From positions 55,430 through 75,429 of the IMG/VR virus record IMGVR_UViG_3300028115_001312: DNA of 20,000 nt, one strand, 5' to 3'. The notes under the pieces are model-generated. The model ran no database searches. It was given only the letters and a program-made list of their open reading frames with translations, and was not told the origin of the DNA. Positions within the stretch are counted from its first letter, which is position 1. Each line of letters begins with the position of its first letter. The position numbers were made by a program, and so were the translations under genes. Shown piece by piece: positions 859 through 18,466 of this stretch. The stretch is from an uncultured virus (IMG/VR IMGVR_UViG_3300028115_001312). Taxonomy: Duplodnaviria > Heunggongvirae > Uroviricota > Caudoviricetes.

Positions 859-1533
859 TTATATACCTATCTTTCCACTACATGTATAATAATAAAAATC
901 ATCATCTGCACAACAAAAGAAGTCTCCTACGAGATAGAAAAACTTACTTTGTGTTAGGTAATGGTCAAATAAGTCTATTAATGGATTCCTATATTCTAGT
1001 GTAAACTGTACTGCTTTATCATCTTCAGTTTTAAACCAATGATTGTATTTTATTTCAGGACCGTATCTTGTAGTAGTGCTTCTTAGGTATTCTACTTTAA
1101 GTTTTTTACCATAAATGGTCATGTTAAAAGGAGTACTAGTATCACAAAGATCTTGTATTTCTTTTTTTACTATATCCTGTATATAAAATTCTGGTAATTT
1201 TGTAAGCATGCCTACTTCAGTAAAATGCACTAAATGTTTGCTTTCTCTTTCTAGTGCCTGTTGTAAATGTTTCCTAAAAGTTGAGAAATGATATTCTTTT
1301 TTAAAAGTTCCTAAGAATAGGTTTTGCTTATAAAATTTACGAATATCTTCTGCACGTTCTAAATAATCACCTTGTGCAATTATTTCTTTTGTACGTGTAG
1401 CATTATCTATGTCTTTTAAGTCAACATGGTAATCTGTGCCTTCATTTCTTATTATGGCTATTGCTATAGGATCATGATTAAATTCTATAAAACCGTCTTG
1501 TCCTGGTTGTAAAAACTCTAGTTGTTCCTGCAT
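859..1533 (-). CDS. Hypothetical phage protein
   Basis: 224-aa ORF coupled to guaC by a TAATG overlap; no recognisable motif. Confidence 0.75.
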   Translation of the reverse strand: MQEQLEFLQPGQDGFIEFNHDPIAIAIIRNEGTDYHVDLKDIDNATRTKEIIAQGDYLERAEDIRKFYKQNLFLGTFKKEYHFSTFRKHLQQALERESKHLVHFTEVGMLTKLPEFYIQDIVKKEIQDLCDTSTPFNMTIYGKKLKVEYLRSTTTRYGPEIKYNHWFKTEDDKAVQFTLEYRNPLIDLFDHYLTQSKFFYLVGDFFCCADDDFYYYTCSGKIGI

Positions 1534-2654
1534 TACTCATATACTCTATTGTGTGTATCCTGACAACGAATAAATGTTGTACATTTAGGTAAGTGTTTTA
1601 ATTTTTCTGCACCCACATATGTACATGCACTACGTAAACCACCTAGCATGTCCTGCACTGTGTTTGTAATAGCACCTTTGTATGGCACCAATACTTCTCT
1701 ACCTTCGCTTGCACGGTAGTCTTTAAGCCCTCCAAAGTGCTTTGTATTGGCAGCATCACTGCTCATGCCATAAAACTGTACAAAATGTTTTTCTTCATAA
1801 ACTGGCTCAAGCCATCCTTTATCATCTTTAAGGACTTCGTTAGTTTCATAAACTTTAGTAATTACTTCACCGCCACCTTCATCGTGTCCAGCAAGCATAC
1901 CACCTAGCATAACAAAATCTGCACCACCAGCGAATGCTTTTGCTACATCACCAGGGCAAGTACAACCTCCATCAGCAATAATGTGTCCACCTAATCCATG
2001 AGCTGCATCAGCACATTCCATTACTGCACTTAGCTGTGGATAACCTACTCCTGTTTGTATACGAGTTGTACACACACTACCAGGTCCTATACCAACTTTT
2101 ACTACATCTGCACCACGAAGTATCAACTCCTGTGTTTGATCTGCGGTTACTACGTTTCCTGCAATAATGACTAAACCAGGATATTCTTCTCTGATACTTG
2201 CAACATAGTTTAGGAAACGTTCACTATATCCATTTGCAACATCAATACATACATACTTAATACCTTTACTACCTGCATATACTGCCCTAAACTTACTAGC
2301 ATCATCTTCTGTGATGCCCATGCTATATGCTACATGTTCTCTTGCAATTGTACTTGTGTTAAAGAAATCAACTAATTCTTTTATACTGTATGTTTTTACA
2401 AGGCAAGTAAACAAACCAAGTTTGCCCAGTGCTTCTGCCATATCAAATGTACCCACACCATCCATGTTAGCAGCCATAATTGGAACTGCATTAAAATCAT
2501 AATCTCTTTGTGTGTTTATAGGGTAACTTGGATTGTAATTTCTAAAACTGTGTCTACGTGTAAGTTGTACTTCTTTACGTGAACCTAGTGTGCTACGTTT
2601 AGGACGCAACAGAACACTATTGTAATCTAACTTGACTTCATTCTCGATATTCAT
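1533..2654 (-). CDS. guaC: GMP reductase
   Basis: Hallmark motifs [45 protein letters not shown] (catalytic Cys), [39 protein letters not shown]. Confidence 0.96.
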
Positions 2655-3033: not shown

Positions 3034-3471
3034 TTACTTGTTAATTGTAATTTTACGAGGCTTCTTCTCTTCTGGAACTATTCTTTCAAGTTCAATGAAA
3101 AGCATACCATTTTCAAGTTTAGCATCTTGAACAACGATATCATCATTTAGTGTAAACTTACGAGTAAACTTTCTACGTGAAATACCTCTGTGTAATATTT
3201 CACCAGCAAAGTTATTTTCATCAAGTTCTACTGGATTATGGCTAATTGTCATAACATTTTCTGCTACTTCAATGTCCAAGTCTTCCATTTTTACACCTGC
3301 TAGAGCCATTTCAATTTGAAATTTATCTCCGTCTCTTACAATGTTGTAAGGTGGATAGCCAGTACTCTGAGTCTGATGTTCAACATAGTTAAACATATTA
3401 TCAAAGATTCTGTCGAATCCGACGGCATATGGTGTAAGTTTATTGATATCGAGTGAGGTTAATCTTGTCAT
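3034..3471 (-). CDS. Small heat shock protein Hsp20 (IbpA-like)
   Basis: VGFDRIFD, YPPYNIV, IEMALAG, LHRGISRRKFTRKFTL, AKLENGML, IVPEEKKPRKITI; AAGGAG RBS. Confidence 0.95.
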   Translation of the reverse strand: MTRLTSLDINKLTPYAVGFDRIFDNMFNYVEHQTQSTGYPPYNIVRDGDKFQIEMALAGVKMEDLDIEVAENVMTISHNPVELDENNFAGEILHRGISRRKFTRKFTLNDDIVVQDAKLENGMLFIELERIVPEEKKPRKITINK

Positions 3472-3686: not shown

Positions 3687-3920
3687 CTAATAATTTTCTA
3701 TTTCACGTTGTTTTTTTAACCATCTGGCTCTACCCGCCGCTTTTGCTTTAGCACGTTTTTCGCTAGGCTTAACATAATACTTACGTTTCCTCATTTCTAA
3801 AATAATGCCTTCATCCTGCATTAATCTTTTTAGTTTGCGAATTGCACGAGAAACATCATTGTTTCTTACTTGGACATATAGTCCTTGTTTTTCTCTAGTT
3901 GGTCTTTGTGGTCTTGCCAT
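3687..3920 (-). CDS. rpsU: Ribosomal protein bS21, phage-encoded
   Basis: VQVRNNDVSRAIRKLKR...EGIILEMRKRKYYVKPSEKR matches the bS21 signature; small and basic. Confidence 0.9.
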   Translation of the reverse strand: MARPQRPTREKQGLYVQVRNNDVSRAIRKLKRLMQDEGIILEMRKRKYYVKPSEKRAKAKAAGRARWLKKQREIENY

Positions 3921-4273
3921 TTAGTCATCCATTTTATTAGCGGATCTATAGGATCCTTAACTTCATTTAAATTAAATCGTTTGTACGATTGTTTATTATT
4001 ATAGTAGTAAACTTGTGATTTGTCAATAAAGAAACCTAAAAAAGTTTCATTATATGCACAGTTTAATATACTTATGTCTGCTTGATGGTAAGCAGTAGAA
4101 ATCCATTCTAAATCTTCTTGTTTGTTAGTAGTATATAAAGTAACTTCTATGGGTAATCTTCTAATGTTATCTACTATATTTTCTATATAATCATCACATC
4201 CTATGCAAAGAATACTTGGTGCTTTTGCATAGTATATATCAGGAGGAGTTACTACTGTAACATTATGGTGCAT
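3866..4273 (-). CDS. Hypothetical phage protein
   Basis: 135-aa ORF overlapping both neighbours in the operon (begins VTVVTPPDIYY). Confidence 0.7.
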   Translation of the reverse strand: MHHNVTVVTPPDIYYAKAPSILCIGCDDYIENIVDNIRRLPIEVTLYTTNKQEDLEWISTAYHQADISILNCAYNETFLGFFIDKSQVYYYNNKQSYKRFNLNEVKDPIDPLIKWMTKWQDHKDQLEKNKDYMSK

Positions 4274-5132
4274 TTAATTTTATCCATTGTTTCTTTGTAA
4301 TTACATTTGCTTTGTGATCTAAAATACTATCTTTATCTTTTTTTGTAGGACACATAGTGCAAATTTTATGTGGTTTACCAAAATTTTTTATAAACATAAC
4401 AATCTCATGCAAAGGACTTTCAATTGATATACCCTGGTAATCTGTATATGGTTTCCATTCTTGATTAATAGGTTGTTTCCAGTCATTAAGAACTTTATTT
4501 AATAAGGCAATACTACTGCATTTGTATATCTTACCTTCATAAAGTAAAGGGCAGGTCTGTTGAATACACATATCAAATGCATCCTTAGGATTATTATTGT
4601 GTGGCCACATATTTCCAAAAGTACCTTTATAGGTTTTAAAAAATTGTGTTGGACTGTTAATTTGGAATCTAGTATTATTAGGGCCTATCCAGCGATTTAT
4701 ACCATATTCAGTAACAGGTTTCCATTCATACTTTTTAAAAATATATTCTATTATCGACTTAGCATATGGTTTATCTTCATGTATTGTAAACTTAAACACG
4801 GTATTTCCAACATCAATACACCAATCTAAAACTTCAGGACATTTATGAAAGTTAACTCCGTTTGTTGTAAACCTTATTTGACTATTAGGTAGTAACTGTC
4901 TTACACCATATATCCATTTCTCACAATCTGGGTTAAGAGTTGGTTCTCCTCCCATTATACCAAAATCAGAAATATCTAACCTGTCTATCCATTTTTCTAT
5001 CCAAGACTTACCGTTTTGCCAACTTATACTGCCTTTCATATTATAATCACTATAATTTGAACACCCTGCACAACTTAAATTGCAAGCATATGTAATCATA
5101 GTTTCAACAAAAGGAAGTATAGGCTTACTCAT
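4263..5132 (-). CDS. Radical SAM protein with a C-terminal Cys-containing (SPASM/twitch-like) region
   Basis: CNLSCAGC (CxxxCxxC), GGEPTL, TTNG, and later cysteines CIQQTC, KC, CTMCP. Confidence 0.9.
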   Translation of the reverse strand: MSKPILPFVETMITYACNLSCAGCSNYSDYNMKGSISWQNGKSWIEKWIDRLDISDFGIMGGEPTLNPDCEKWIYGVRQLLPNSQIRFTTNGVNFHKCPEVLDWCIDVGNTVFKFTIHEDKPYAKSIIEYIFKKYEWKPVTEYGINRWIGPNNTRFQINSPTQFFKTYKGTFGNMWPHNNNPKDAFDMCIQQTCPLLYEGKIYKCSSIALLNKVLNDWKQPINQEWKPYTDYQGISIESPLHEIVMFIKNFGKPHKICTMCPTKKDKDSILDHKANVITKKQWIKLNAP

Positions 5133-5440
5133 AACTTAAATTTAACTTCTTCTTGTTCTTGCTCTGTAAGATCATCTATTTCAATATGACCCTGTTTTAC
5201 CAACCAAGTAAGATGTGTTATGTAATCTTCATTTAAGTAAGTATCGGTTGTTTCTTTATCTAATTGCATCCAGTTTGAACCTGTCCAGCGAAATAATTTA
5301 TTAGGTAGTGCATCTACTCTTACAAACAAATCACCTTTATCAGGATACTTGGGAAAAGCAGTACCAAAGTCTGCTTGAGCCGCCTTTTCTAAATCCAGAT
5401 CCGCTACAACGGCTAAATTCGGGGTAGGGATCGTTATGCT
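5129..5440 (-). CDS. -1 frame C-terminal extension of the 5434..7197 protein (103 aa, SITIPTPNL...FGTAFPKYPDKGDLFVRVDALPNKLFRWTGSNW...)
   Basis: The frame of the 5129..5329 track ORF is open back through the A7 run at 5440-5446, with no ATG or strong RBS ahead of the track's TTG start. Confidence 0.7.
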   Translation of the reverse strand, partial: SITIPTPNLAVVADLDLEKAAQADFGTAFPKYPDKGDLFVRVDALPNKLFRWTGSNWMQLDKETTDTYLNEDYITHLTWLVKQGHIEIDDLTEQEQEEVKFKL

Positions 5441-5446
5441 TTTTTT
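5378..5446 (-). promoter_or_regulatory. Putative programmed -1 ribosomal frameshift signal (slippery heptamer plus H-type pseudoknot)
   Basis: A_AAA_AAA in the correct phase, 7-nt spacer, stem1 GAUCC-CUAC / GUAG-C-GGAUC, stem2 AGCCGUU / GGCGGCU. Confidence 0.75.
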
Positions 5447-7197
5447 GGCTCTTCAGGGGTTTCGGTGTTAGCTTCTGCTTCTAAACCTTGTGCAAATTCG
5501 TCTTTTTCAACTAATTGATACTTCTCTGCCATTTTAATAACAACTGCATCACGTCTTTCTATCTCTGCTTCCTGTTCAGCTATCTTCTTTAATAGTTCTT
5601 CTTCACGAGTTTTAAGACCTTCTGCACCTTGTGCTATTTCATCCAGTGTCTTTTTGTAGTTGTCACGTTCTGCTTCTGTTGCAACTACTTTATCAACTAG
5701 TGCATCACTTTCTGCTTTTGCTTCTGCGAGTTGTGCTTCTAAACCAGCAATTTTTTCTACTAGTTCATCACGTTCTTTTTGTAGTTCTGCAAACTTCGCA
5801 GGATCTACATTAGCAAGATTACCATCTAATAGTTTTTCTATTTCTGCTAAGACTTCATTATGTTTTTTAAGTTCCATTTCTAGTTCCTCTACTCTTGGAT
5901 CAGTAACTCTTACGATTTGTTCTTTTACTTTTGGTTTATTTTTTTGGCGGTCTTCTCTCCACCATCCTATTGTCATAGTACCTGCTAGTACTAAACAAAC
6001 TGCAAGTGGATCAAATACTGCAACAATAATTATAATAACCCAACGTACTGCATCTTCTAATAAGTTACGATCTGCTTCACCATATATAAGTTCTGCAATA
6101 TATTTTACAGGACCAACTTCAGCTTCAAACTGTCTATATTCTTTTTCAAATACAAACTTTTCTTCTCTTAATTTGTCTAACTCTGGTTGTACACTTTCTA
6201 TATTTTTTTCTAACTGTACAATCTTTTCATCTACACTATCATTAGTAGTACCTGCTTCTGTAGTATATTTTGCAATATTTGAATTTGCACTATCAATAGT
6301 GCCTTTTATACTGTCACGTATTTTTTGTATACGAACTTCTACTTGGTTAATTTGTTCAGCAAGTTTTTTGTTAATCTCTGTAATTTGTCTTTGTACTCTA
6401 CTTGCGACACCAATCTCATTTTGTTTTGCTTTTGCAATATCAGCATTAAGTTTATCACGTTCAGGCTTTTGTTCTTTACGTAATTGATTACCTTTTGCAA
6501 CATTATCTACATCAGCAGTAAACACACCACCCTTAGTTGTGCCTTGTTTTAAATATGCTTCAACATCTTTGTCCAGTACTGCTAAACGTTTTTCTGCTTG
6601 TGCTATGTCTGCCTTTGTACGATTCTGTGCATCACTTAATCGTTTGTTTTGTTGTGCAATTTCTTTATCTGCTTGTGCTTGTAGGCCAGGTATCTTCGCA
6701 TTTTCTGCATCTATTTGTGGTTGTATTCTATTGTTTGCTTCTTTAATACGATCACGTTCACGTTTTATTAATACATCTAATCTAGTGCTTGTTTCACCCT
6801 GGTTAAGTCTTTTAATATCTTCTGTCCAGCGATTGACTTTGGCTTGTATACGTGCCATCTTTTTGTCAATTACTTCAACTTGTGCAATTTGTTCTGTACC
6901 CATTGCACTTTGTTCAATATGGGACTTAGATAGGAAACCAAATACACCCATGCTTGTGATAAACATAAGAACAACTACTGCAATTACTAGATAACTTTTT
7001 ATTACCATAGGTGCACGATGCCAGTTTTGATGTAACCATACTGTTGCTAGTAGTTTACCTACTTCTAATACACTACCCATTAGGACAATTGGTAAGAAAG
7101 CCGCTGCAAATATTGCAGTAAGTCCAATAATACTATAATACGCAGCAATTATACTGATTGATATAGCAACAAATAATGTGAGGATACCTAAAAACAT
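5434..7197 (-). CDS. Membrane-anchored long coiled-coil protein
   Basis: N-terminal TM helices, a long heptad region, AEVGPVKYIAELIYG...AVRWVIIIIVAVFDPLAV TM segment and an acidic C-terminal coiled coil. Confidence 0.85.
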   Translation of the reverse strand: MFLGILTLFVAISISIIAAYYSIIGLTAIFAAAFLPIVLMGSVLEVGKLLATVWLHQNWHRAPMVIKSYLVIAVVVLMFITSMGVFGFLSKSHIEQSAMGTEQIAQVEVIDKKMARIQAKVNRWTEDIKRLNQGETSTRLDVLIKRERDRIKEANNRIQPQIDAENAKIPGLQAQADKEIAQQNKRLSDAQNRTKADIAQAEKRLAVLDKDVEAYLKQGTTKGGVFTADVDNVAKGNQLRKEQKPERDKLNADIAKAKQNEIGVASRVQRQITEINKKLAEQINQVEVRIQKIRDSIKGTIDSANSNIAKYTTEAGTTNDSVDEKIVQLEKNIESVQPELDKLREEKFVFEKEYRQFEAEVGPVKYIAELIYGEADRNLLEDAVRWVIIIIVAVFDPLAVCLVLAGTMTIGWWREDRQKNKPKVKEQIVRVTDPRVEELEMELKKHNEVLAEIEKLLDGNLANVDPAKFAELQKERDELVEKIAGLEAQLAEAKAESDALVDKVVATEAERDNYKKTLDEIAQGAEGLKTREEELLKKIAEQEAEIERRDAVVIKMAEKYQLVEKDEFAQGLEAEANTETPEEPKKA

Positions 7198-7203
7198 CTT
7201 TGT

Positions 7204-7233
7204 ATTATACTACCTTTAGCTTCTAATTGTCAA
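7204..7233 (-). promoter_or_regulatory. sigma70-type promoter
   Basis: TTGACA (7233-7228)-N18-TATAAT (7209-7204), with the ATG of the next gene only 6 nt downstream. Confidence 0.7.
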
Positions 7234-8077
7234 CTAACAAAATATCAAATGTACAGGTATATCTACCATTATTACTAAATGTTATCATCCTTGCATCTAA
7301 GTCAGATTTTTCAGTCAGTGCTTGTGGTATAGGGTACTCAAGTTGATAAGGTCCACCTACACCATTTACTTCTGCAATGTGCTTGGTTTGAAAACTACCT
7401 GTACCACTTGGACGAACCATAAGTTTAAAGCTACCTGTCGCCGTACCTTGTGCAGTTACATCTAATCTCATTAGATAACCTGTTTTTCCTGCAGGAATAG
7501 TATATATACTCATTAAGGTTTGACCTATATTCTCTAGTATTTTTGCTACAGTTGTACCGCTTGACTTAATTAAAATACGTTTTGTGTTAGGTTCAAAACT
7601 TCCACCGTCAGTAAATTTTGCTCTAAAAACTCTTTTGAAATTATTTGAAGTTGTGCCACTAGATCCTGATATAGTTACTGTTTCTGTTTGTAAAGCATAG
7701 TCGCCATCTAATCCTTGTATTTCAACAGTATCGCCATTATGTGCAGTACTAGTGGATGCTTCATTATTTGGTTCTACAACTGTAACTGTGAGGACACCAT
7801 TGCTATCTATAGTACTCCAAGGATATATAGTATCATCTTCATCCCATATTGTACCTTCTGTATTTTGGCTCATTGAAGGGACTGCACCAAACTTGTGAAT
7901 TTCACCAAACCCTGAAGGCAGTTGGATATTTGTTATTACACTACTACCCGTGGTCCTTAATACAGGTTCACCACCTAAATTATACTCCATTGCTTTATGT
8001 ACATTAAGTAGATTAGTTTCTTGTGGATGCACATAACTTGTAGAGTTTTGTCTACTAGTATCTGAATAGTCAGCCAT
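7223..8077 (-). CDS. Putative virion structural protein (beta-rich)
   Basis: 284 aa, T/S/G/N-rich, in the late (TAAATA) operon. Confidence 0.65.
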   Translation of the reverse strand: MADYSDTSRQNSTSYVHPQETNLLNVHKAMEYNLGGEPVLRTTGSSVITNIQLPSGFGEIHKFGAVPSMSQNTEGTIWDEDDTIYPWSTIDSNGVLTVTVVEPNNEASTSTAHNGDTVEIQGLDGDYALQTETVTISGSSGTTSNNFKRVFRAKFTDGGSFEPNTKRILIKSSGTTVAKILENIGQTLMSIYTIPAGKTGYLMRLDVTAQGTATGSFKLMVRPSGTGSFQTKHIAEVNGVGGPYQLEYPIPQALTEKSDLDARMITFSNNGRYTCTFDILLVDN

Positions 8078-8080
8078 TTA

Positions 8081-8542
8081 TTATGTCCAAGGACGACTTG
8101 CAGTTAGGTTGCCACTATCGCCTGTGTTATCAGTTACAGTATCGTTCACATAACGTGTAGGTAACAGTGTTCTGTCATGTGTATTCCCACTACGATAATA
8201 TGGTTTTGTTGTATCGCCACCAGCAGTACGTTTTAATGCAGCAATGTCAAGCATCATAAGTTGACTGCGTTCTCTTGTAGTCTGGTTTCTGTCTGTTGCT
8301 ACAGTTATAATATCACCTGCTATTATACCAGCATTTACTAATGTAGTACTTGCACTATCTGTACTATCTACAACTGTTCCATTTTTATGAATACTAACTG
8401 GACCATAGTAATAACTTTGTAATCCTTCATCAGCAATAATAGCAGTACGAAGTTGCGCCATTGTTTGCCCATTGTCAATTGTAAGGTCGTTGTGTAATCC
8501 TGTTAGGCCTTTATATTTTATATTAATGTTTGCCACGTTCAT
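8081..8542 (-). CDS. Protein with an N-terminal ubiquitin-like (beta-grasp) domain
   Basis: Residues 6-41 align ungapped with ubiquitin 1-36, and a later TLVNAGIIAGDIITV fits the UBL final helix-turn/strand. GGAG RBS; the start may be the GTG at 8536. Confidence 0.7.
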   Translation of the reverse strand: MNVANINIKYKGLTGLHNDLTIDNGQTMAQLRTAIIADEGLQSYYYGPVSIHKNGTVVDSTDSASTTLVNAGIIAGDIITVATDRNQTTRERSQLMMLDIAALKRTAGGDTTKPYYRSGNTHDRTLLPTRYVNDTVTDNTGDSGNLTASRPWT

Positions 8543-8813
8543 GCTCCAGTTGTGTTATGTAATGATATAAACTTGGGCTGTCTGTTCTAATATCAGCAGC
8601 ATGTTTTGGACCATTTATTCCACCACCTGCATGTGAAGTTACTGCTTCTATATCTGCATACTGTTCATTAGGTGCATTTGCAGGTTCGCACTCACTACGA
8701 TCATCTACAACCAAATCATCTATTTGTTTGAAATGGTTTTCATCCTGAGGAGCAGTATTTTTTATCTCCTCTAACTTATCGATAAGTTTTTTTAATTCTG
8801 CAATAATATCCAT
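8523..8813 (-). CDS. Hypothetical late protein (start revised to MDIIAEL)
   Basis: The track start at 8828 spans the TAAATA motif (8819-8824); the ATG at 8813 follows it by 5 nt. Confidence 0.7.
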   Translation of the reverse strand: MDIIAELKKLIDKLEEIKNTAPQDENHFKQIDDLVVDDRSECEPANAPNEQYADIEAVTSHAGGGINGPKHAADIRTDSPSLYHYITQLEHERGKH

Positions 8814-8818
8814 AAACA

Positions 8819-8834
8819 TATTTATCACTAAATA
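8819..8834. promoter_or_regulatory. Back-to-back TAAATA late-type promoters
   Basis: TAAATA on minus (8824-8819) and on plus (8829-8834) between two divergent genes. Confidence 0.7.
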
Positions 8835-13112: not shown

Positions 13113-13150
13113 TATTTATATACTAGTATAACTTATATGTCAACTAAATA
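13113..13150. promoter_or_regulatory. Divergent promoter region
   Basis: Minus strand: TTGACA (13143-13138)-N17-TATAAATA (13120-13113). Plus strand: TAAATA at 13145-13150. Confidence 0.65.
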
Positions 13151-13501: not shown

Positions 13502-15274
13502 TTACAAGTCTAACTCTGCTCGCCATCTTATATCAAAATCGTTAGCGACTTCTTTATTTTCCAATTCTTTTAGGTATGCTCTTAGATATTCTCCGCCTAC
13601 ATCACCGTCTTTTATTGCTTGATTAATCATACCTGTAATAATAGATTTTTTACCATCATCATTTATTGTACCACGTAACCCCATAATGAAGTTAAGTGCA
13701 TTGTCACTATAATCTGTTCTTATATCATAGTTCATATCTATCCGACTTTGGAAATCTTTTTCATCAAATATTTTTTTAAGTAATGTATCCCAACTATCAA
13801 TTGCAGTTTGTATATCTTCGTTTACATTACGTCTACTCATTAAGTTAGCACAGTCTGTTTCTATTTGTCCTATCTTAGCAGATTGATAACTAGCAAGTGT
13901 GGAACTATCTGGACCTTGTGGGATACTTATACCACTTGGATCTAATATAGTTGTTTCTGCTGGCACTGGTGGTGGCCCAGCACTAGCAGGAACAACAACT
14001 GTTGTATAAGCACCGCCCATTCCAGCTGCAAATTCTGTTAAATGTGTTTGTAATGTTGTTAGTTCACCTGCATCATACAATGCTTTCATAGCAGTCCTAT
14101 AATTACTTGCAGGTGTTTCTAATCCAACTGCACCCAGTGAACCTATCATATCAACAAGTGTAATGTTTTCATTAGGGCCTGTGCCACCTAAGAACTTTGC
14201 TACTAAACTATCAATATAGTCTCTTCTAACAAAATTTGTTATATTATCTATGGTGGGCAAATCTACTGTAGTTACACGACTTATATAGTTTGCTAATTGT
14301 GTAAGATTTTCCATTCTTCCAAGCTCTATTGCTTGAAGTTTTAAACGAAACTCTTCCATACTACTAAAGGTTATTATGTCTTTACTATTTTTAAAAATTT
14401 TATCAAAGTCTGTATAGTCACCTAGTTTTTCTAAATCAATATTAGTAACTAATAATGATTGTGCATTTGTAAGTAATGCAGGCACTGTAATCATATCTAG
14501 TAATTGTTGTACAAGTACATTGTATTGAGGATCTGCAATATTATATATAGTACTAGGATCTATGCCGACATTTGCCAAAACTTGAGATAAACCTGTCACT
14601 GCGACTGCATCTTTTGTATTAAGTGCTTGAATTACTTGTCCAGGATTTCCAAAGTTTGCTATATCTTGTAAATTAAATACAGTCCCTAAATTTGTAATAT
14701 CCTGTGCTAATAATGTAAAGTTTTCCTGTGATGCTTCTGTTACAAGTGTGCTAACTCCGTTTGTTACTACTGCTTGTAAATCTGGATATCCTTCACCTAG
14801 ATAATAGGGAAACACACCATCTTCAGGATATTCCAATGAGTCTGCATTAGGCAACTTACCAAATTCTATTCCGTTTCTAAGTTGCAATAAACTTGGTGCT
14901 ACACGTTTACTACTTGCTACTAAACTATTTGCAATAAAAAAAGTTTGTGCCATTTGTATTGGACTTGTGCCAAACATTAAATTTGCATGGGCACTTATTC
15001 TGTCCATACCTAAACCAGCACCTACTGTACTTGTGTATGTAGCAGGTACTGTTCCAGTAAATGCACCAGATCCACTTATGTCACGATTACATAATGTGTC
15101 TACTGAGCCTCCAGCCGCTTTTACATCAGCAGTCAATTGAATATGTCCGTTTGCCTCTGCTTTTGTAAGTGCTACGAGTTCTTTTGTGCCTTCTGTTAAA
15201 CCATTGCCATCTTCTAAGGCACCTGTTGCCATGCTACCCAGATAACTTATTGAACTACTTGAACCGTATGCCAT
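13502..15274 (-). CDS. Putative virion/baseplate-associated protein
   Basis: 590 aa, acidic and G/A/T-rich, coupled to the PAAR gene by a TAATG overlap. Confidence 0.65.
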   Translation of the reverse strand: MAYGSSSSISYLGSMATGALEDGNGLTEGTKELVALTKAEANGHIQLTADVKAAGGSVDTLCNRDISGSGAFTGTVPATYTSTVGAGLGMDRISAHANLMFGTSPIQMAQTFFIANSLVASSKRVAPSLLQLRNGIEFGKLPNADSLEYPEDGVFPYYLGEGYPDLQAVVTNGVSTLVTEASQENFTLLAQDITNLGTVFNLQDIANFGNPGQVIQALNTKDAVAVTGLSQVLANVGIDPSTIYNIADPQYNVLVQQLLDMITVPALLTNAQSLLVTNIDLEKLGDYTDFDKIFKNSKDIITFSSMEEFRLKLQAIELGRMENLTQLANYISRVTTVDLPTIDNITNFVRRDYIDSLVAKFLGGTGPNENITLVDMIGSLGAVGLETPASNYRTAMKALYDAGELTTLQTHLTEFAAGMGGAYTTVVVPASAGPPPVPAETTILDPSGISIPQGPDSSTLASYQSAKIGQIETDCANLMSRRNVNEDIQTAIDSWDTLLKKIFDEKDFQSRIDMNYDIRTDYSDNALNFIMGLRGTINDDGKKSIITGMINQAIKDGDVGGEYLRAYLKELENKEVANDFDIRWRAELDL

Positions 15275-15654
15275 TATGTTATGCCACCTGAGACATTTAA
15301 TGCAGGATTTGCCAAACCAGAACTAGCAGTAGAACCTACCACTGCAGGTCCTCCTCCTAAACCAGGTCCACCTACTAATACATTAAAAGCACCTGTTACT
15401 CTAGGATGAGCACAAGTATCAATATCCATAACTCTATGTACCGGCAACCCTTCAGCAAGAACCGTTAAGGCACCTCCTGTTACAAACGCAACACAATGTA
15501 TACTACAACCAGGTGCACCACAACAAGGGTGTGGAGTCACAGGACTTGCAAAAGCAGCCAAGGGTCTACCTGCTGCCCATACTGTTGGTCTAGGCACAGT
15601 TGTTAGGCCACCTGCGGCATTTGCATCACCTACGCATACTACTGGAAACGTCAT
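15274..15654 (-). CDS. PAAR-domain spike-tip protein (gp5.4-like) with a Gly-rich C-terminal tail
   Basis: PVVCVGD, TVWAAGRPLA, PHPCC...HC, TVLAEGLPVHRVMD..TCAH..TGAFNVLVG; TAAATA at 15659-15664. Confidence 0.85.
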   Translation of the reverse strand: MTFPVVCVGDANAAGGLTTVPRPTVWAAGRPLAAFASPVTPHPCCGAPGCSIHCVAFVTGGALTVLAEGLPVHRVMDIDTCAHPRVTGAFNVLVGGPGLGGGPAVVGSTASSGLANPALNVSGGIT

Positions 15655-15974: not shown

Positions 15975-16207
15975 CTTAAATAGTCCTCTACACATGCATA
16001 TGATATACCAGGAGGAGAAACAGCTTTACGATTAAGTCCTTCCAGCATACATTCTTCATAACTTTTAAAGTAGTCTAATCCTTTTCCTTCAACATCTCCG
16101 CTAACATCTATACTGACTACTACTAATATATATCCTAAAATTAGAATAATTAATCTCCAAAATAATCCTGTTGCACACCTTCTCGGTAAAGATCTAGTGT
16201 AATACAA
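15971..16207 (-). CDS. Small secreted/membrane protein; true start uncertain, probably near 16150
   Basis: Hydrophobic ILILGYILVVVSI followed by a Cys pair (EEC...YAC), with an ATGA overlap to the glutaredoxin gene. Confidence 0.5.
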   Translation of the reverse strand: MYYTRSLPRRCATGLFWRLIILILGYILVVVSIDVSGDVEGKGLDYFKSYEECMLEGLNRKAVSPPGISYACVEDYLR

Positions 16208-17301
16208 TGTAAACCACCGTCCCAGAAATACCTATGACGCCATGGAACATAAACTGGTTCTACATTGTGTTTTTTTAAAAAACTATTTACCTGTTCGTTA
16301 TTTGGATTTGATACACAACAATGATGTTCGTCTAGCATCAATACGTTAACATCAAATACTGTTTCTTCTACGTAACCTATCCAATCTTGTAACCATGTTT
16401 CTACAAAATGAGTAAACTCATCATTATCTTCCTCACCAGCAAGCCACCACTTTCCTGAATTCTTTTCTTTCAATTTAAGAAATTCATGTACCCTAGTCCA
16501 ACTCTGATCCGGAAGATAACAAACGTCCCATCCTGGAAACGTTTCAGAATATGTTTGTACGTCTGTTAAACTTAATATTGCACCAGGTTTAATTGGGTGA
16601 AAATTTCCGTCGGAATGTCCATCCATAGGTGCTCTTATAATTTCAAATTTATCAAATATAGGATGTAAATTTCTTAGTCCAAAGTCAGTTAAATCCTTTG
16701 GTAACTCATTATCCATATGAAGTGTTGATCCAATATATAATCTTTTTCCTATCATAAAACAATTTGCACTAGATAACATAGTGTAACTAAAATTTAACAA
16801 CTCTTGCCAAACAAAATCATTGAAAAAATTTTTGTTAGTACTATTTTTCTTATAATCTTCCCAACTTGGATAATCACTTCCTGCTATTATATTATAACTG
16901 TTCTCTGTAAATATTAAAGGATATTCTATTCGTTGTTGAAATGTATCTACTCCGCCATACTCCTGCAGTTTAATAGGAATCTGTTGGTGATCATTATTAT
17001 ATGCAAAGCAACTATTACCTAAAACCAATTGGTCGTCTCTTGGTTGGAGTGGTCCACGTGGATAGGTTTGAGGATCATCTAAAAAACGTTGTTTAGGATC
17101 CATATCTGGTTGTATAACCTTTACTCCAAAATCCTGTAATATTTCTTTATACCCGTTTAAGTCTTCTAATGTCTCTTCACATATACGTTTTAATGGATCA
17201 CCAGCCTTATCAGGTATTCCATTAAAGAATTCAGGTGCATAGTTATTGCCTAACATACACACTCGAAGTGGATCCCATTTATTCCATATATTATATTTCA
17301 T
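16150..17301 (-). CDS. Amidinotransferase-family (pentein) protein, paralog 2 (start revised to MKYNIW)
   Basis: WDPL..CMLG, QPRD, GHSDG, FDVNVL, RHRYFWDGGLHCITLDLYR with the catalytic Cys. Confidence 0.88.
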   Translation of the reverse strand: MKYNIWNKWDPLRVCMLGNNYAPEFFNGIPDKAGDPLKRICEETLEDLNGYKEILQDFGVKVIQPDMDPKQRFLDDPQTYPRGPLQPRDDQLVLGNSCFAYNNDHQQIPIKLQEYGGVDTFQQRIEYPLIFTENSYNIIAGSDYPSWEDYKKNSTNKNFFNDFVWQELLNFSYTMLSSANCFMIGKRLYIGSTLHMDNELPKDLTDFGLRNLHPIFDKFEIIRAPMDGHSDGNFHPIKPGAILSLTDVQTYSETFPGWDVCYLPDQSWTRVHEFLKLKEKNSGKWWLAGEEDNDEFTHFVETWLQDWIGYVEETVFDVNVLMLDEHHCCVSNPNNEQVNSFLKKHNVEPVYVPWRHRYFWDGGLHCITLDLYREGVQQDYFGD

Positions 17302-18466
17302 TGAAGTAACTCTGTTGTACACCTTCTCTATATAAGTCTAGAGTAATACAATGTAAACCGCCATCCCAGAAATACCTATGACGCCACGGAACATACACCG
17401 GCTCTACTTTATGTTTTTTTAAAAATGCGTTTACTTGTTCGTTATGTGGATTTGCTACGCAGCAATGATGTTCGTCTAACATTAACACATTTACGTCAAA
17501 TACAGTTTCTTCTACATAGCCTACCCAGTCCTGTAACCAAGTTTCTACAAAGTTTGTAAACTCGTCATTGTCTTCTTCTCCTGCCAGCCACCATTTGCCT
17601 TGATTTTTATTTTTTATTTCTAAAAATGGTTTTACTTTTCTCCAACTTTGGTCAGGTAGATAACATACGTCCCAACCTGGGAATGTCCTAGAGTATTTTT
17701 GTACATCTCGTAAACTTAATATTGCTCCTGGTTTAATAGGATGAAAGTTACCGTCAGTGTGTCCGTCCATAGGAGAAAAATCTATATTAAATTTATCAAA
17801 TCCAGGCAACCCTGCATAATGTTGTTCAGAATACTTATTTTTATGGTATTCAACATTAGACGTATCTACTTCATCTTTTTCCAAACCTATATATAATCTT
17901 TTCCCTATCATAAAAGTTGTAGCACTGCTAAAACCGTGAAGACCATCTGAATAATGTAATAACTCTTCCCAAACAAAATCTGAAAAATAATCTTTATTGT
18001 TTATATTTTCTATATACTGTTCATAGGTAGGAAAATCTGCACCTTTTATAAAATTATAACTATCTTTATCTTTATAAAAAGGAATACTTCTTTTAATATC
18101 AGAAGAATAGGACACAGGCCCGTATTCCTTTAACTTATCTATAATTGCTGGATGATCACCTTCGTTTACAAAACATGTGTTTGCTAAAACTAATTGGAAA
18201 TCTCTTGGTTGGAGAGGCCCACGTGGATATCTACTAGGATTATCTATAAAACGTTCAGACCTATCCATATCAGGTTGTATAACTTTGACACCAAAGTCTT
18301 GAAGTATCTGTTTAAAACCTTGTAAATCTTCAAGTGTTTCTTCACAGATACGTTTTAATGGATCGCCTGCTTTGTCCGGTATTCCGTTAAAAAACTCTGG
18401 CGCATAGTTATTACCAAGCATACAAACCTTAAGTGGATCCCATTTATTCCATATGTTATACTTCAT
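17291..18466 (-). CDS. Amidinotransferase-family (pentein) protein, paralog 1
   Basis: Same motifs: WDPLK, QPRD, GHTDG, GGLHCITLD. Confidence 0.88.
   Translation of the reverse strand: MKYNIWNKWDPLKVCMLGNNYAPEFFNGIPDKAGDPLKRICEETLEDLQGFKQILQDFGVKVIQPDMDRSERFIDNPSRYPRGPLQPRDFQLVLANTCFVNEGDHPAIIDKLKEYGPVSYSSDIKRSIPFYKDKDSYNFIKGADFPTYEQYIENINNKDYFSDFVWEELLHYSDGLHGFSSATTFMIGKRLYIGLEKDEVDTSNVEYHKNKYSEQHYAGLPGFDKFNIDFSPMDGHTDGNFHPIKPGAILSLRDVQKYSRTFPGWDVCYLPDQSWRKVKPFLEIKNKNQGKWWLAGEEDNDEFTNFVETWLQDWVGYVEETVFDVNVLMLDEHHCCVANPHNEQVNAFLKKHKVEPVYVPWRHRYFWDGGLHCITLDLYREGVQQSYFNEI

Follow-up and report, generated by a model that had tools for sequence, protein, structure and literature searches.

Ubiquitin-type domains are a eukaryotic hallmark, and in some proteins, such as those of the Rad23, Dsk2 and parkin type, they form an integral part of the chain that is not cleaved from it. 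To our knowledge, the ubiquitin-type domains described so far in bacteria are mainly those of sulfur carriers, of gpI of phage lambda and of anti-phage conjugation systems. The ubiquitin-like proteins (Ubls) of the Bil and CBASS systems have a free C-terminal glycine and are encoded in operons together with E1, E2 and JAB genes. Lambda gpI (TAPI) is presented in PMC1779556 as ThiS/MoaD-like, with a conserved C-terminal glycine on its ubiquitin-like domain (UBL) and a gene lying between those of gpK (JAB and NlpC/P60) and gpJ. BfUbb, the eukaryote-like ubiquitin of Bacteroides fragilis (PMC3463472), is a free secreted single domain. In jumbo phages, Laminin G3 domains have been located on virion components, tail fibres among them (PMC7824862).

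The protein described here is encoded in a 20,000-nucleotide stretch of DNA from an uncultured tailed virus, referred to as the window, and shares features with each of these groups. Like ubiquitin and the integral UBLs (PF00240), it displays the predicted fold, a detectable homology and a KGLTG motif corresponding to KTLTG, in an N-terminal domain with no free GG; unlike integral UBL proteins, it is encoded by a tailed phage, and its family bears a connector and lectin or adhesin heads, with no UBA, ligase or protease domains. We know of no ubiquitin-reading machinery in the presumed bacterial host. A ubiquitin fold in the setting of phage-bacterium conflict is also the feature of Bil and type II CBASS Cap2 modifiers (10.1101/2023.09.04.556158, PMC10097602), unlike which the window protein has neither a free glycine nor an operon of that kind and comes from the phage side. 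The presence of eukaryote-type ubiquitin, without conjugation, in a prokaryotic setting is shared with BfUbb, whereas the window UBL is fused to a connector within a phage structural-type family. The long forms of this family, with LamG, PA14 and GLEYA-type heads, are comparable to lectin-bearing virion proteins (phrog_8510; PMC7824862) and, in combining a constant base with a variable head, to host-recognition proteins; unlike in the known lectin-bearing virion proteins, the base consists of a UBL and a connector with an RPW motif, and the window member is headless.

The window is the final 20 kb of a 75.4 kb IMG/VR record of 34% G+C and 22% CheckV completeness. Since its genes include those for a T4 gp9/10-like N-terminus, a clamp-loader-like AAA protein, PhoH, MazG, Hsp20, ClpS, a PstS-like protein, ribosomal protein S21, PAAR and a SleB-type hydrolase, the record is attributed to a large tailed bacteriophage. 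The 203 kb fragment on which a syntenic relative lies has a rated completeness of 57%, suggesting a jumbo-sized genome, and all genome records compared are fragments (22%, 57% and 14-17% complete). The gene of interest is a single ORF whose translation is the 153-aa protein quoted in an earlier, sequence-only reading of this DNA (Table 1). A GGAG stands 7 nt upstream of GTG 8536 but only 1 nt upstream of ATG 8542, and MANI is the N-terminus in most relatives; consequently, the real product is probably 151 aa long, starting at the GTG, in which case the ubiquitin-like domain begins at its first residues. Homologues of the window protein number 156 at E ≤ 0.01 and are mostly 148-153 aa long.

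Table 1. Positions in the window of the ubiquitin-like gene, the parts of its product and the neighbouring genes
Feature	Position	Strand	Remarks
UBL-connector ORF	8081..8542	minus	153 aa if started at ATG 8542, probably 151 aa with start at GTG 8536; ends in TAATAA (double stop)
Ubiquitin-type beta-grasp (predicted), residues ~4-84	8291..8533	minus	AlphaFold2 model, Foldseek and VIA, profile matches to ubiquitin, invariant Y10-L16
Connector ('stalk'), residues 87-153	8084..8284	minus	Helix 90-109, loop, beta-hairpin 129-138, C-terminal RPW
Internal GG, residues 108-109	8216..8221	minus	Helix-capping loop of connector
RPW motif, residues 150-152	8087..8095	minus	Invariant in A2/A3; boundary at which relatives stop or continue into lectin-type heads
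Upstream 101-aa gene	8523..8828	minus	Overlaps UBL gene by 14-20 nt; constant upstream partner
Downstream 284-aa protein (phrog_8198)	7223..8077	minus	Conserved ~45-aa N-terminus, swappable body; candidate virion/fibre protein
587-aa membrane and coiled-coil protein	5434..7197	minus	Conserved last cassette gene

The sequence-only reading had aligned the N-terminus with ubiquitin without gaps and counted 10 identities in 36 positions. A recount by hand gives the same number (I, K, LTG, L, T, I, EG), and the ubiquitin letters used agree with PDB alignments; by itself, such a hand-counted identity is weak evidence. Its broader proposal of a ubiquitin-like stretch of ~85 residues is borne out by structural modelling and by the family profiles. 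An AlphaFold2 model based on a 23-sequence alignment (mean pLDDT 74.6, rising to 78-90 in blocks that cover residues 1-50 and 61-100) displays strands at residues 5-11 and 17-23, a helix at 28-39 and strands at 50-53, 56-59 and 78-80, in the beta-beta-alpha-beta-beta-beta order of a beta-grasp, and places AGDIITV, already noted as a typical UBL end, as the last strand of the domain. Comparison of this predicted beta-grasp with the PDB by Foldseek retrieved ubiquitin-superfamily structures, namely SUMO, NEDD8, ubiquitin and ISG15, from E 2.5e-5 with a probability of 1.00 and a TM to target of 0.7-0.78. With VIA-align (48,161 chains), Z values of 10.9-9.0 to UBL, UBX and YukD domains were obtained over model residues 1-87, the superpositions having an rmsd of 1.9-2.8 over 73-85 residues.

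Profile comparisons were carried out with three alignments of increasing or restricted breadth. Profile A3, made of 22 diverse short forms from which the most ubiquitin-like subgroup was purposely left out, retrieved from the PDB single-domain ubiquitin chains (E 5e-5 to 4e-4) and nothing else in the top 60, and in its alignment the KGLTG of the family falls on the KTLTG of ubiquitin. The wider profile A2 matched mono-ubiquitin at about 2e-8 to 3e-7, and the narrow profile A1 of close relatives, among which Y10-L16 is invariant, found no ubiquitin in the PDB at E ≤ 10, noise being reached at E about 1. In Pfam, the window protein showed only a sub-threshold match to OTU1_UBXL (E 0.07, 14.1 bits, cut-off 22.7), and PF00240 (cut-off 25.4 bits) gave no match at E ≤ 1 for this protein, none for 23 close relatives and none at E ≤ 1 in a six-frame scan of the record. 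Three of the 58 long relatives, P0182, P0206 and P0210, score over the Pfam ubiquitin cut-off (30.8, 33.9 and 49.9 bits, respectively), and three more score below it. In P0182 and P0206, it is the N-terminus that passes the cut-off, and the match to the A1 profile spans positions 1-150. P0210, which shares about 37 of 73 residues with ubiquitin (hand count, about 51%), is aligned to A3 by hhalign with a probability of 99.6% over 124 columns, in register through both modules. As the modelled fold, the profile matches and the intermediate relatives are three independent lines which agree, the ubiquitin likeness is considered real. The N-terminal domain is, as modelled and by profile, a ubiquitin-type beta-grasp with a likeness beyond chance; among solved families, eukaryotic ubiquitin appears to be the closest to its profile, and homology of the family to ubiquitin proper is detectable at that level.

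Whether such a domain could serve as a conjugatable tag depends on its C-terminus, for which LKRTAGG had been proposed as a ubiquitin-like end. The motif does occupy residues 103-109, but its GG belongs to the next module, ~25 residues beyond the last beta-grasp strand, where the connector helix ends. That strand, IITV (residues 78-81), leads directly into ATDRNQTTRER, which is followed by the 20-residue helix of the connector. No conserved glycine is found at the beta-grasp end in the A2 and A3 alignments. A survey of homologues showed, contrary to what a modifier terminus would imply, that the GG is variable and part of the connector. Among the 137 proteins with exact RPW, a rough regular-expression count found the K/R pair followed by GG in 83, by one G in 44 and by neither in 10; the site carries insertions of 10-15 residues in some relatives, and KR..GG is also present in relatives devoid of a UBL. 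That no E1 or E2 is visible in the window was correctly noted before and is true of the whole 75 kb record, where ThiF, UQ_con and Prok-JAB had 0 matches at E ≤ 1 and no E1, E2 or JAB was identified among the 111 ORFs of this incomplete record. In five related records, all of them fragments (203, 51, 44, 39 and 38 kb), there was no Prok-JAB and no ThiF over the cut-off, one 12-bit match being the sole ThiF signal. Since the beta-grasp ends without a glycine, the GG is variable and connector-borne and no E1, E2 or JAB was found, several tests thus speaking against a tag, the UBL domain is regarded as non-conjugatable and built into the chain. For the protein to be a true modifier precursor, a protease would have to cut after G109 and the resulting UBL-helix fragment be conjugated to targets. 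Such a scheme would account for the loose resemblance of LKRTAGG to the LRLRGG of ubiquitin and for the 83/137 relatives with GG after the K/R pair, but it is extremely improbable in view of the location of the GG in a different module, its occurrence in UBL-less connector proteins, its reduction to a single G or disruption by 10-15-residue insertions in many relatives, and the lack of E1, E2 and JAB genes in the 75 kb record and of Prok-JAB or above-threshold ThiF in the five related ones.

The connector that follows the UBL comprises ~65 residues folded, as predicted, into an amphipathic helix, a loop and a beta-hairpin, and ends the window protein with RPWT. Its invariant residues are Q94 and R150-P151-W152. 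Folded alone, it again yields the helix and the hairpin with moderate confidence (pLDDT 68.9). VIA-align of the connector against 48,161 solved chains gave no structural match (best Z 3.1) and the ESM Atlas no usable match for residues 86-153; in BFVD, only four matches were obtained, all of them family members from uncultured Caudovirales (E 0.0055-0.019).

When 1.84 billion cluster representatives were searched with a profile, 274 proteins were obtained at E ≤ 1e-3, and 150 listed among them were classified by local HMMs of the two modules, giving an approximate census in which many metagenome proteins are partial. The UBL, the connector and a C-terminal domain occur together in 52 of the 150 listed, and the UBL with the connector only, as in the window protein, in 40; the others listed have the connector and a C-terminal domain without UBL (25), the connector alone (18, of 77-115 aa), the connector behind another N-terminus (9) or UBL fragments (6). 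Exact RPW is present in 137 of the 150 listed, where the chain ends within ≤4 residues of it in 50 cases and runs on for >40 residues in 77. Among the 58 long members, Pfam recognizes Laminin_G_3 heads in 33, PA14/GLEYA heads in 9, ILEI heads in 4 (one also with LamG) and a DUF285 head in 1, while 3 have other Pfam families only and 9 have none; Calx-beta is a further head type found behind RPW in the family. The LamG part of the long forms matches phrog_8510, annotated as 'virion structural protein'. The UBL itself is present in many of these relatives and absent from others. By comparison of these sequences, the connector appears as the constant element of the family, the UBL as an optional N-terminal cap and the region behind RPW as an exchangeable lectin or adhesin head. 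A constant base with swappable C-terminal binding domains, as in adhesins, is thus found in the family, and the window protein is classed from its sequence as a headless short form of this modular family, whose members are found in large tailed phages, uncultured, from the sea and from fresh water. The window protein has no match in PHROGs, and neither blastn of 3 kb nor tblastn of the protein found a match among 50,697 records of cultured phages; for UBL-less P0207, tblastn matches in cultured phages were confined to the LamG part.

The gene order around the UBL gene was compared in 14 related IMG/VR loci, which include near-duplicates and represent about nine distinct ones. A homologue of the 101-aa gene, whose product belongs to no Pfam or PHROG family, is located directly upstream in 14/14 loci. 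The UBL slot holds forms of 148-153 aa in 11/14 loci and of 401 aa in 3/14, and one scanned 401-aa form has a sub-threshold LamG match (25.7 bits, cut-off 27.6). Between the TAATAA of the UBL gene and the next gene, 3 nt remain. In 10 loci, the likeness of the downstream protein to the 284-aa neighbour of the window is confined to the first ~45 residues, the bodies being of 284-, 466- and 247-aa types; the gene with the swappable body is missing in 2 loci, and a membrane/coiled-coil protein of 583-654 aa comes next in 11. The 284-aa neighbour itself shows 35-45% identity to proteins of 50 phage records, mostly of cyanomyophages, and its homologues are annotated mostly as hypothetical, with some labelled tail fiber or virion structural protein. 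In the 203 kb relative, there is a second paralogue of 393 aa composed of a UBL, the connector and a LamG-like tail. In a further locus (L026), P0210 is followed by proteins matching head-decoration, tail-fibre and baseplate PHROGs, and in two others (L030, on a 29-kb contig, and L033, on a 367-kb contig) UBL-less members adjoin a large terminase and a virion structural protein. The idea of a split gene, in which the downstream gene would be the detached head, was rejected because the long form P0122 and the 284-aa neighbour have no BLASTP similarity (best E 1.9) and a six-frame scan of the 75 kb record found no Laminin_G_3. A perfect sigma-70 consensus precedes the membrane-protein gene.

A lambda gpI-like (TAPI-type) assembly factor, which would help to build the tail or fibre complex and be absent from the finished particle, would have the same layout, with an N-terminal ubiquitin-like domain, a small C-terminal domain and a phage morphogenesis context (PMC1779556). 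The tight, overlapping gene order with two partners of unassigned function and the existence of a headless form without ligand-binding domain are consistent with such a role. It is nevertheless rather unlikely for the window protein, which differs from TAPI in every distinguishing feature considered: the profile matches ubiquitin proper and not ThiS/MoaD, the UBL ends without a conserved glycine, and where gpK and gpJ would flank TAPI, the actual neighbours are the 101-aa protein, the phrog_8198 protein and the membrane coiled-coil protein, no JAB/NlpC (gpK-like) or gpJ-like neighbour having been found. PF06805 had no match at E ≤ 1 in the window record and four related ones and none for the window protein. 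Moreover, most relatives carry lectin heads on the same module, as would be expected of a displayed protein more than of a chaperone.

The reading preferred here, held with moderate confidence, is that the protein is a virion surface or fibre component. Heads of the lectin type serve for binding outside the cell, so that the proteins of this family are most likely exposed on the particle. The same genomic slot occurs with and without a LamG-like form, and the adjacent gene has exchanged bodies, both of which argue for this reading, together with annotation-level hints, that is, the tail fiber and virion structural labels of the neighbours, phrog_8510 and the contexts of the three loci with virion genes named above, and with the presence of Laminin G3 domains in jumbo-phage virions (PMC7824862). 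Among the three options offered by the sequence-only reading, a structural beta-grasp or virion-associated UBL fits best, and nothing found supports the third, a decoy or inhibitor. The connector, modelled with moderate confidence, would dock the protein on the virus particle or on a partner fibre protein, and the C-terminal head, where present, may bind surface sugars. The UBL would then act as a cap for non-covalent protein-protein interaction, with the KGLTG loop as the putative counterpart of the Leu8 loop of ubiquitin. The headless protein would sit at that same docking site in the form of a bare stalk with its UBL, and its production would be joint with that of the 101-aa protein encoded upstream and of the downstream protein with the swappable body.

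Several observations argue against a virion component. The protein lacks a PHROG match and a homologue in the cultured-phage records, and it fails the Pfam ubiquitin model; given its pLDDT and the lack of any solved likeness, the docking role assigned to the connector is pure inference. The region mixes metabolic and stress genes (GMP reductase, ClpS, Hsp20, S21) and is no clean structural module, the sigma-70 consensus before the membrane-protein gene could indicate that the cassette acts in the infected cell, and the headless form has no obvious adhesin function.

A counter-defence look-alike of ubiquitin, itself unconjugated, would bind and block, or divert, host Ubl conjugation defences (Bil-type, CBASS Cap2/Cap3). 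Bil systems conjugate a Ubl to the central tail fibre of phages (10.1101/2023.09.04.556158). The KGLTG surface loop of the family is strongly conserved, as a binding interface would be, and the short form has no other obvious activity. The UBL is dispensable, however, 43 of the 150 listed proteins starting with the connector and 9 more having it behind another N-terminus, and it is mostly joined to lectin-type heads, which would be odd for a cytoplasmic inhibitor; such a function is therefore very unlikely. Distinctly improbable as well is a more elaborate proposal, in which large marine phages captured eukaryotic-type ubiquitin as a permanent surface or fibre cap countering the Ubl defences that tag tail fibres. 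The UBL would then, for example, pre-occupy or mimic the tag, or recruit Ubl-binding or deconjugating proteins of the host, and the headless form would represent a minimal free-standing counter-measure.

A widespread phage family carries a recognisable ubiquitin domain hard-wired to a new connector and to sugar-binding heads, with no conjugation machinery, and gives phage surface proteins a modular scaffold of a new kind. A capture of ubiquitin from eukaryotes by phages is possible. No published description of a phage family combining UBL, connector and lectin was found in the full-text literature outside subscription journals, and within that scope the base made of a UBL and the RPW connector is previously undescribed. 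The headless form, the stand-alone connector, the architecture census, the analysis of the GG and the conserved cassette are new here. The connector constitutes a small domain without structural precedent, and the short form, isolating the UBL and the connector in ~150 aa, is the handiest target for structure determination and for the search for a docking partner.

With regard to expression, TATAAATA, the T4-type late promoter word, occurs once in the window, at 13113-13120 and far from the UBL gene, for 4.9 occurrences expected by chance. Of the sampled words, 52-91% were present in six runs carrying a metatranscriptome label, and contigs of four such runs reach 26-27 of the 30 bins into which a 5.5 kb stretch was divided, DNA carry-over being possible. 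The cover in RNA-labelled runs is equally broad over all genes, on both sides, and denotes presence in RNA libraries only. One contig of 1,441 nt from these runs spans positions 7202-8642.

The 284-aa protein encoded downstream of the UBL-connector gene, when compared with the loci L006-L018 of related phages, displays a constant N-terminus of ~45 residues, with the kept motif MxDxSDTSR..Y.HPQETNLLN.HKAMEYN, followed by an exchanged body, for which 284-, 466- and 247-aa types occur in related phages. Cassette exchange of this kind is characteristic of host-recognition proteins. At its 3' end, the 284-aa gene carries a perfect sigma-70 consensus (TTGACA, 18 nt, TATAAT; 12/12 match) on the minus strand, immediately upstream of the membrane and coiled-coil gene for the 587-aa protein (start 7197). 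This consensus suggests a separate host-type promoter for the latter gene. The 587-aa protein, for which no Pfam or PHROG family was found, has ~3 membrane helices in its N-terminal part and a long coiled coil, besides a further hydrophobic block and a coiled-coil tail that is acidic; its gene is kept in 11 of 14 related loci.

Features in the window, elsewhere in its phage record (G000) and in other records
Feature	Location	Strand	Remark
284-aa protein	window 7223-8077	-	exchanged body
Sigma-70 consensus	window 7204-7233	-	
587-aa protein	window 5434-7197	-	N-terminal membrane helices, coiled coil
PAAR-motif protein	window 15274-15654	-	sub-threshold, 22.3 bits
590-aa protein	window 13502-15274	-	no family; PAAR-motif protein directly upstream
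390/391-aa genes	window 16150-17322, 17291-18466	-	adjacent, clearly paralogous
Host-type gene run	window 3687-3920, 2670-2975, 3034-3471, 1533-2654	-	
P0210	L026 509-1606	+	UBL-connector family member
Second paralogue, 393 aa	L025 814-1995	-	203 kb relative
TctA-family transporter subunit	L002 8998-10428		G000, outside window
Bax1-I family membrane protein	L003 1718-2401		G000, outside window
Serine hydroxymethyltransferase	L004 10831-11970		G000, outside window

Among the other members of the UBL-connector family, P0210 possesses an N-terminal domain ~51% identical to eukaryotic ubiquitin (PF00240 score of 49.9-54.6 bits), which ends in LILTLILVSK whereas ubiquitin ends in LRLRGG, and the genes following it match tail-fibre and head-decoration PHROGs. 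In the metagenome protein P0236 (452 aa) the usual order is reversed, the UBL-connector unit being C-terminal (residues 317-450, ending RPWII) behind an unrelated region of 310 residues. The 393-aa paralogue of the 203 kb relative consists of a UBL, a connector ending GRPF and a LamG-like tail, and adjoins a radical-SAM gene homologous to that at window 4263-5132.

Elsewhere in the window, the PAAR-motif protein and the 590-aa protein are candidates for a spike tip and its partner. The 390/391-aa paralogues have no Pfam family, and a homologue also occurs in locus L005. The window further contains a run of phage-borne host-type genes, whose synteny extends to most related loci; it encodes ribosomal protein S21, ClpS, Hsp20 and a GMP reductase/IMPDH-family enzyme.
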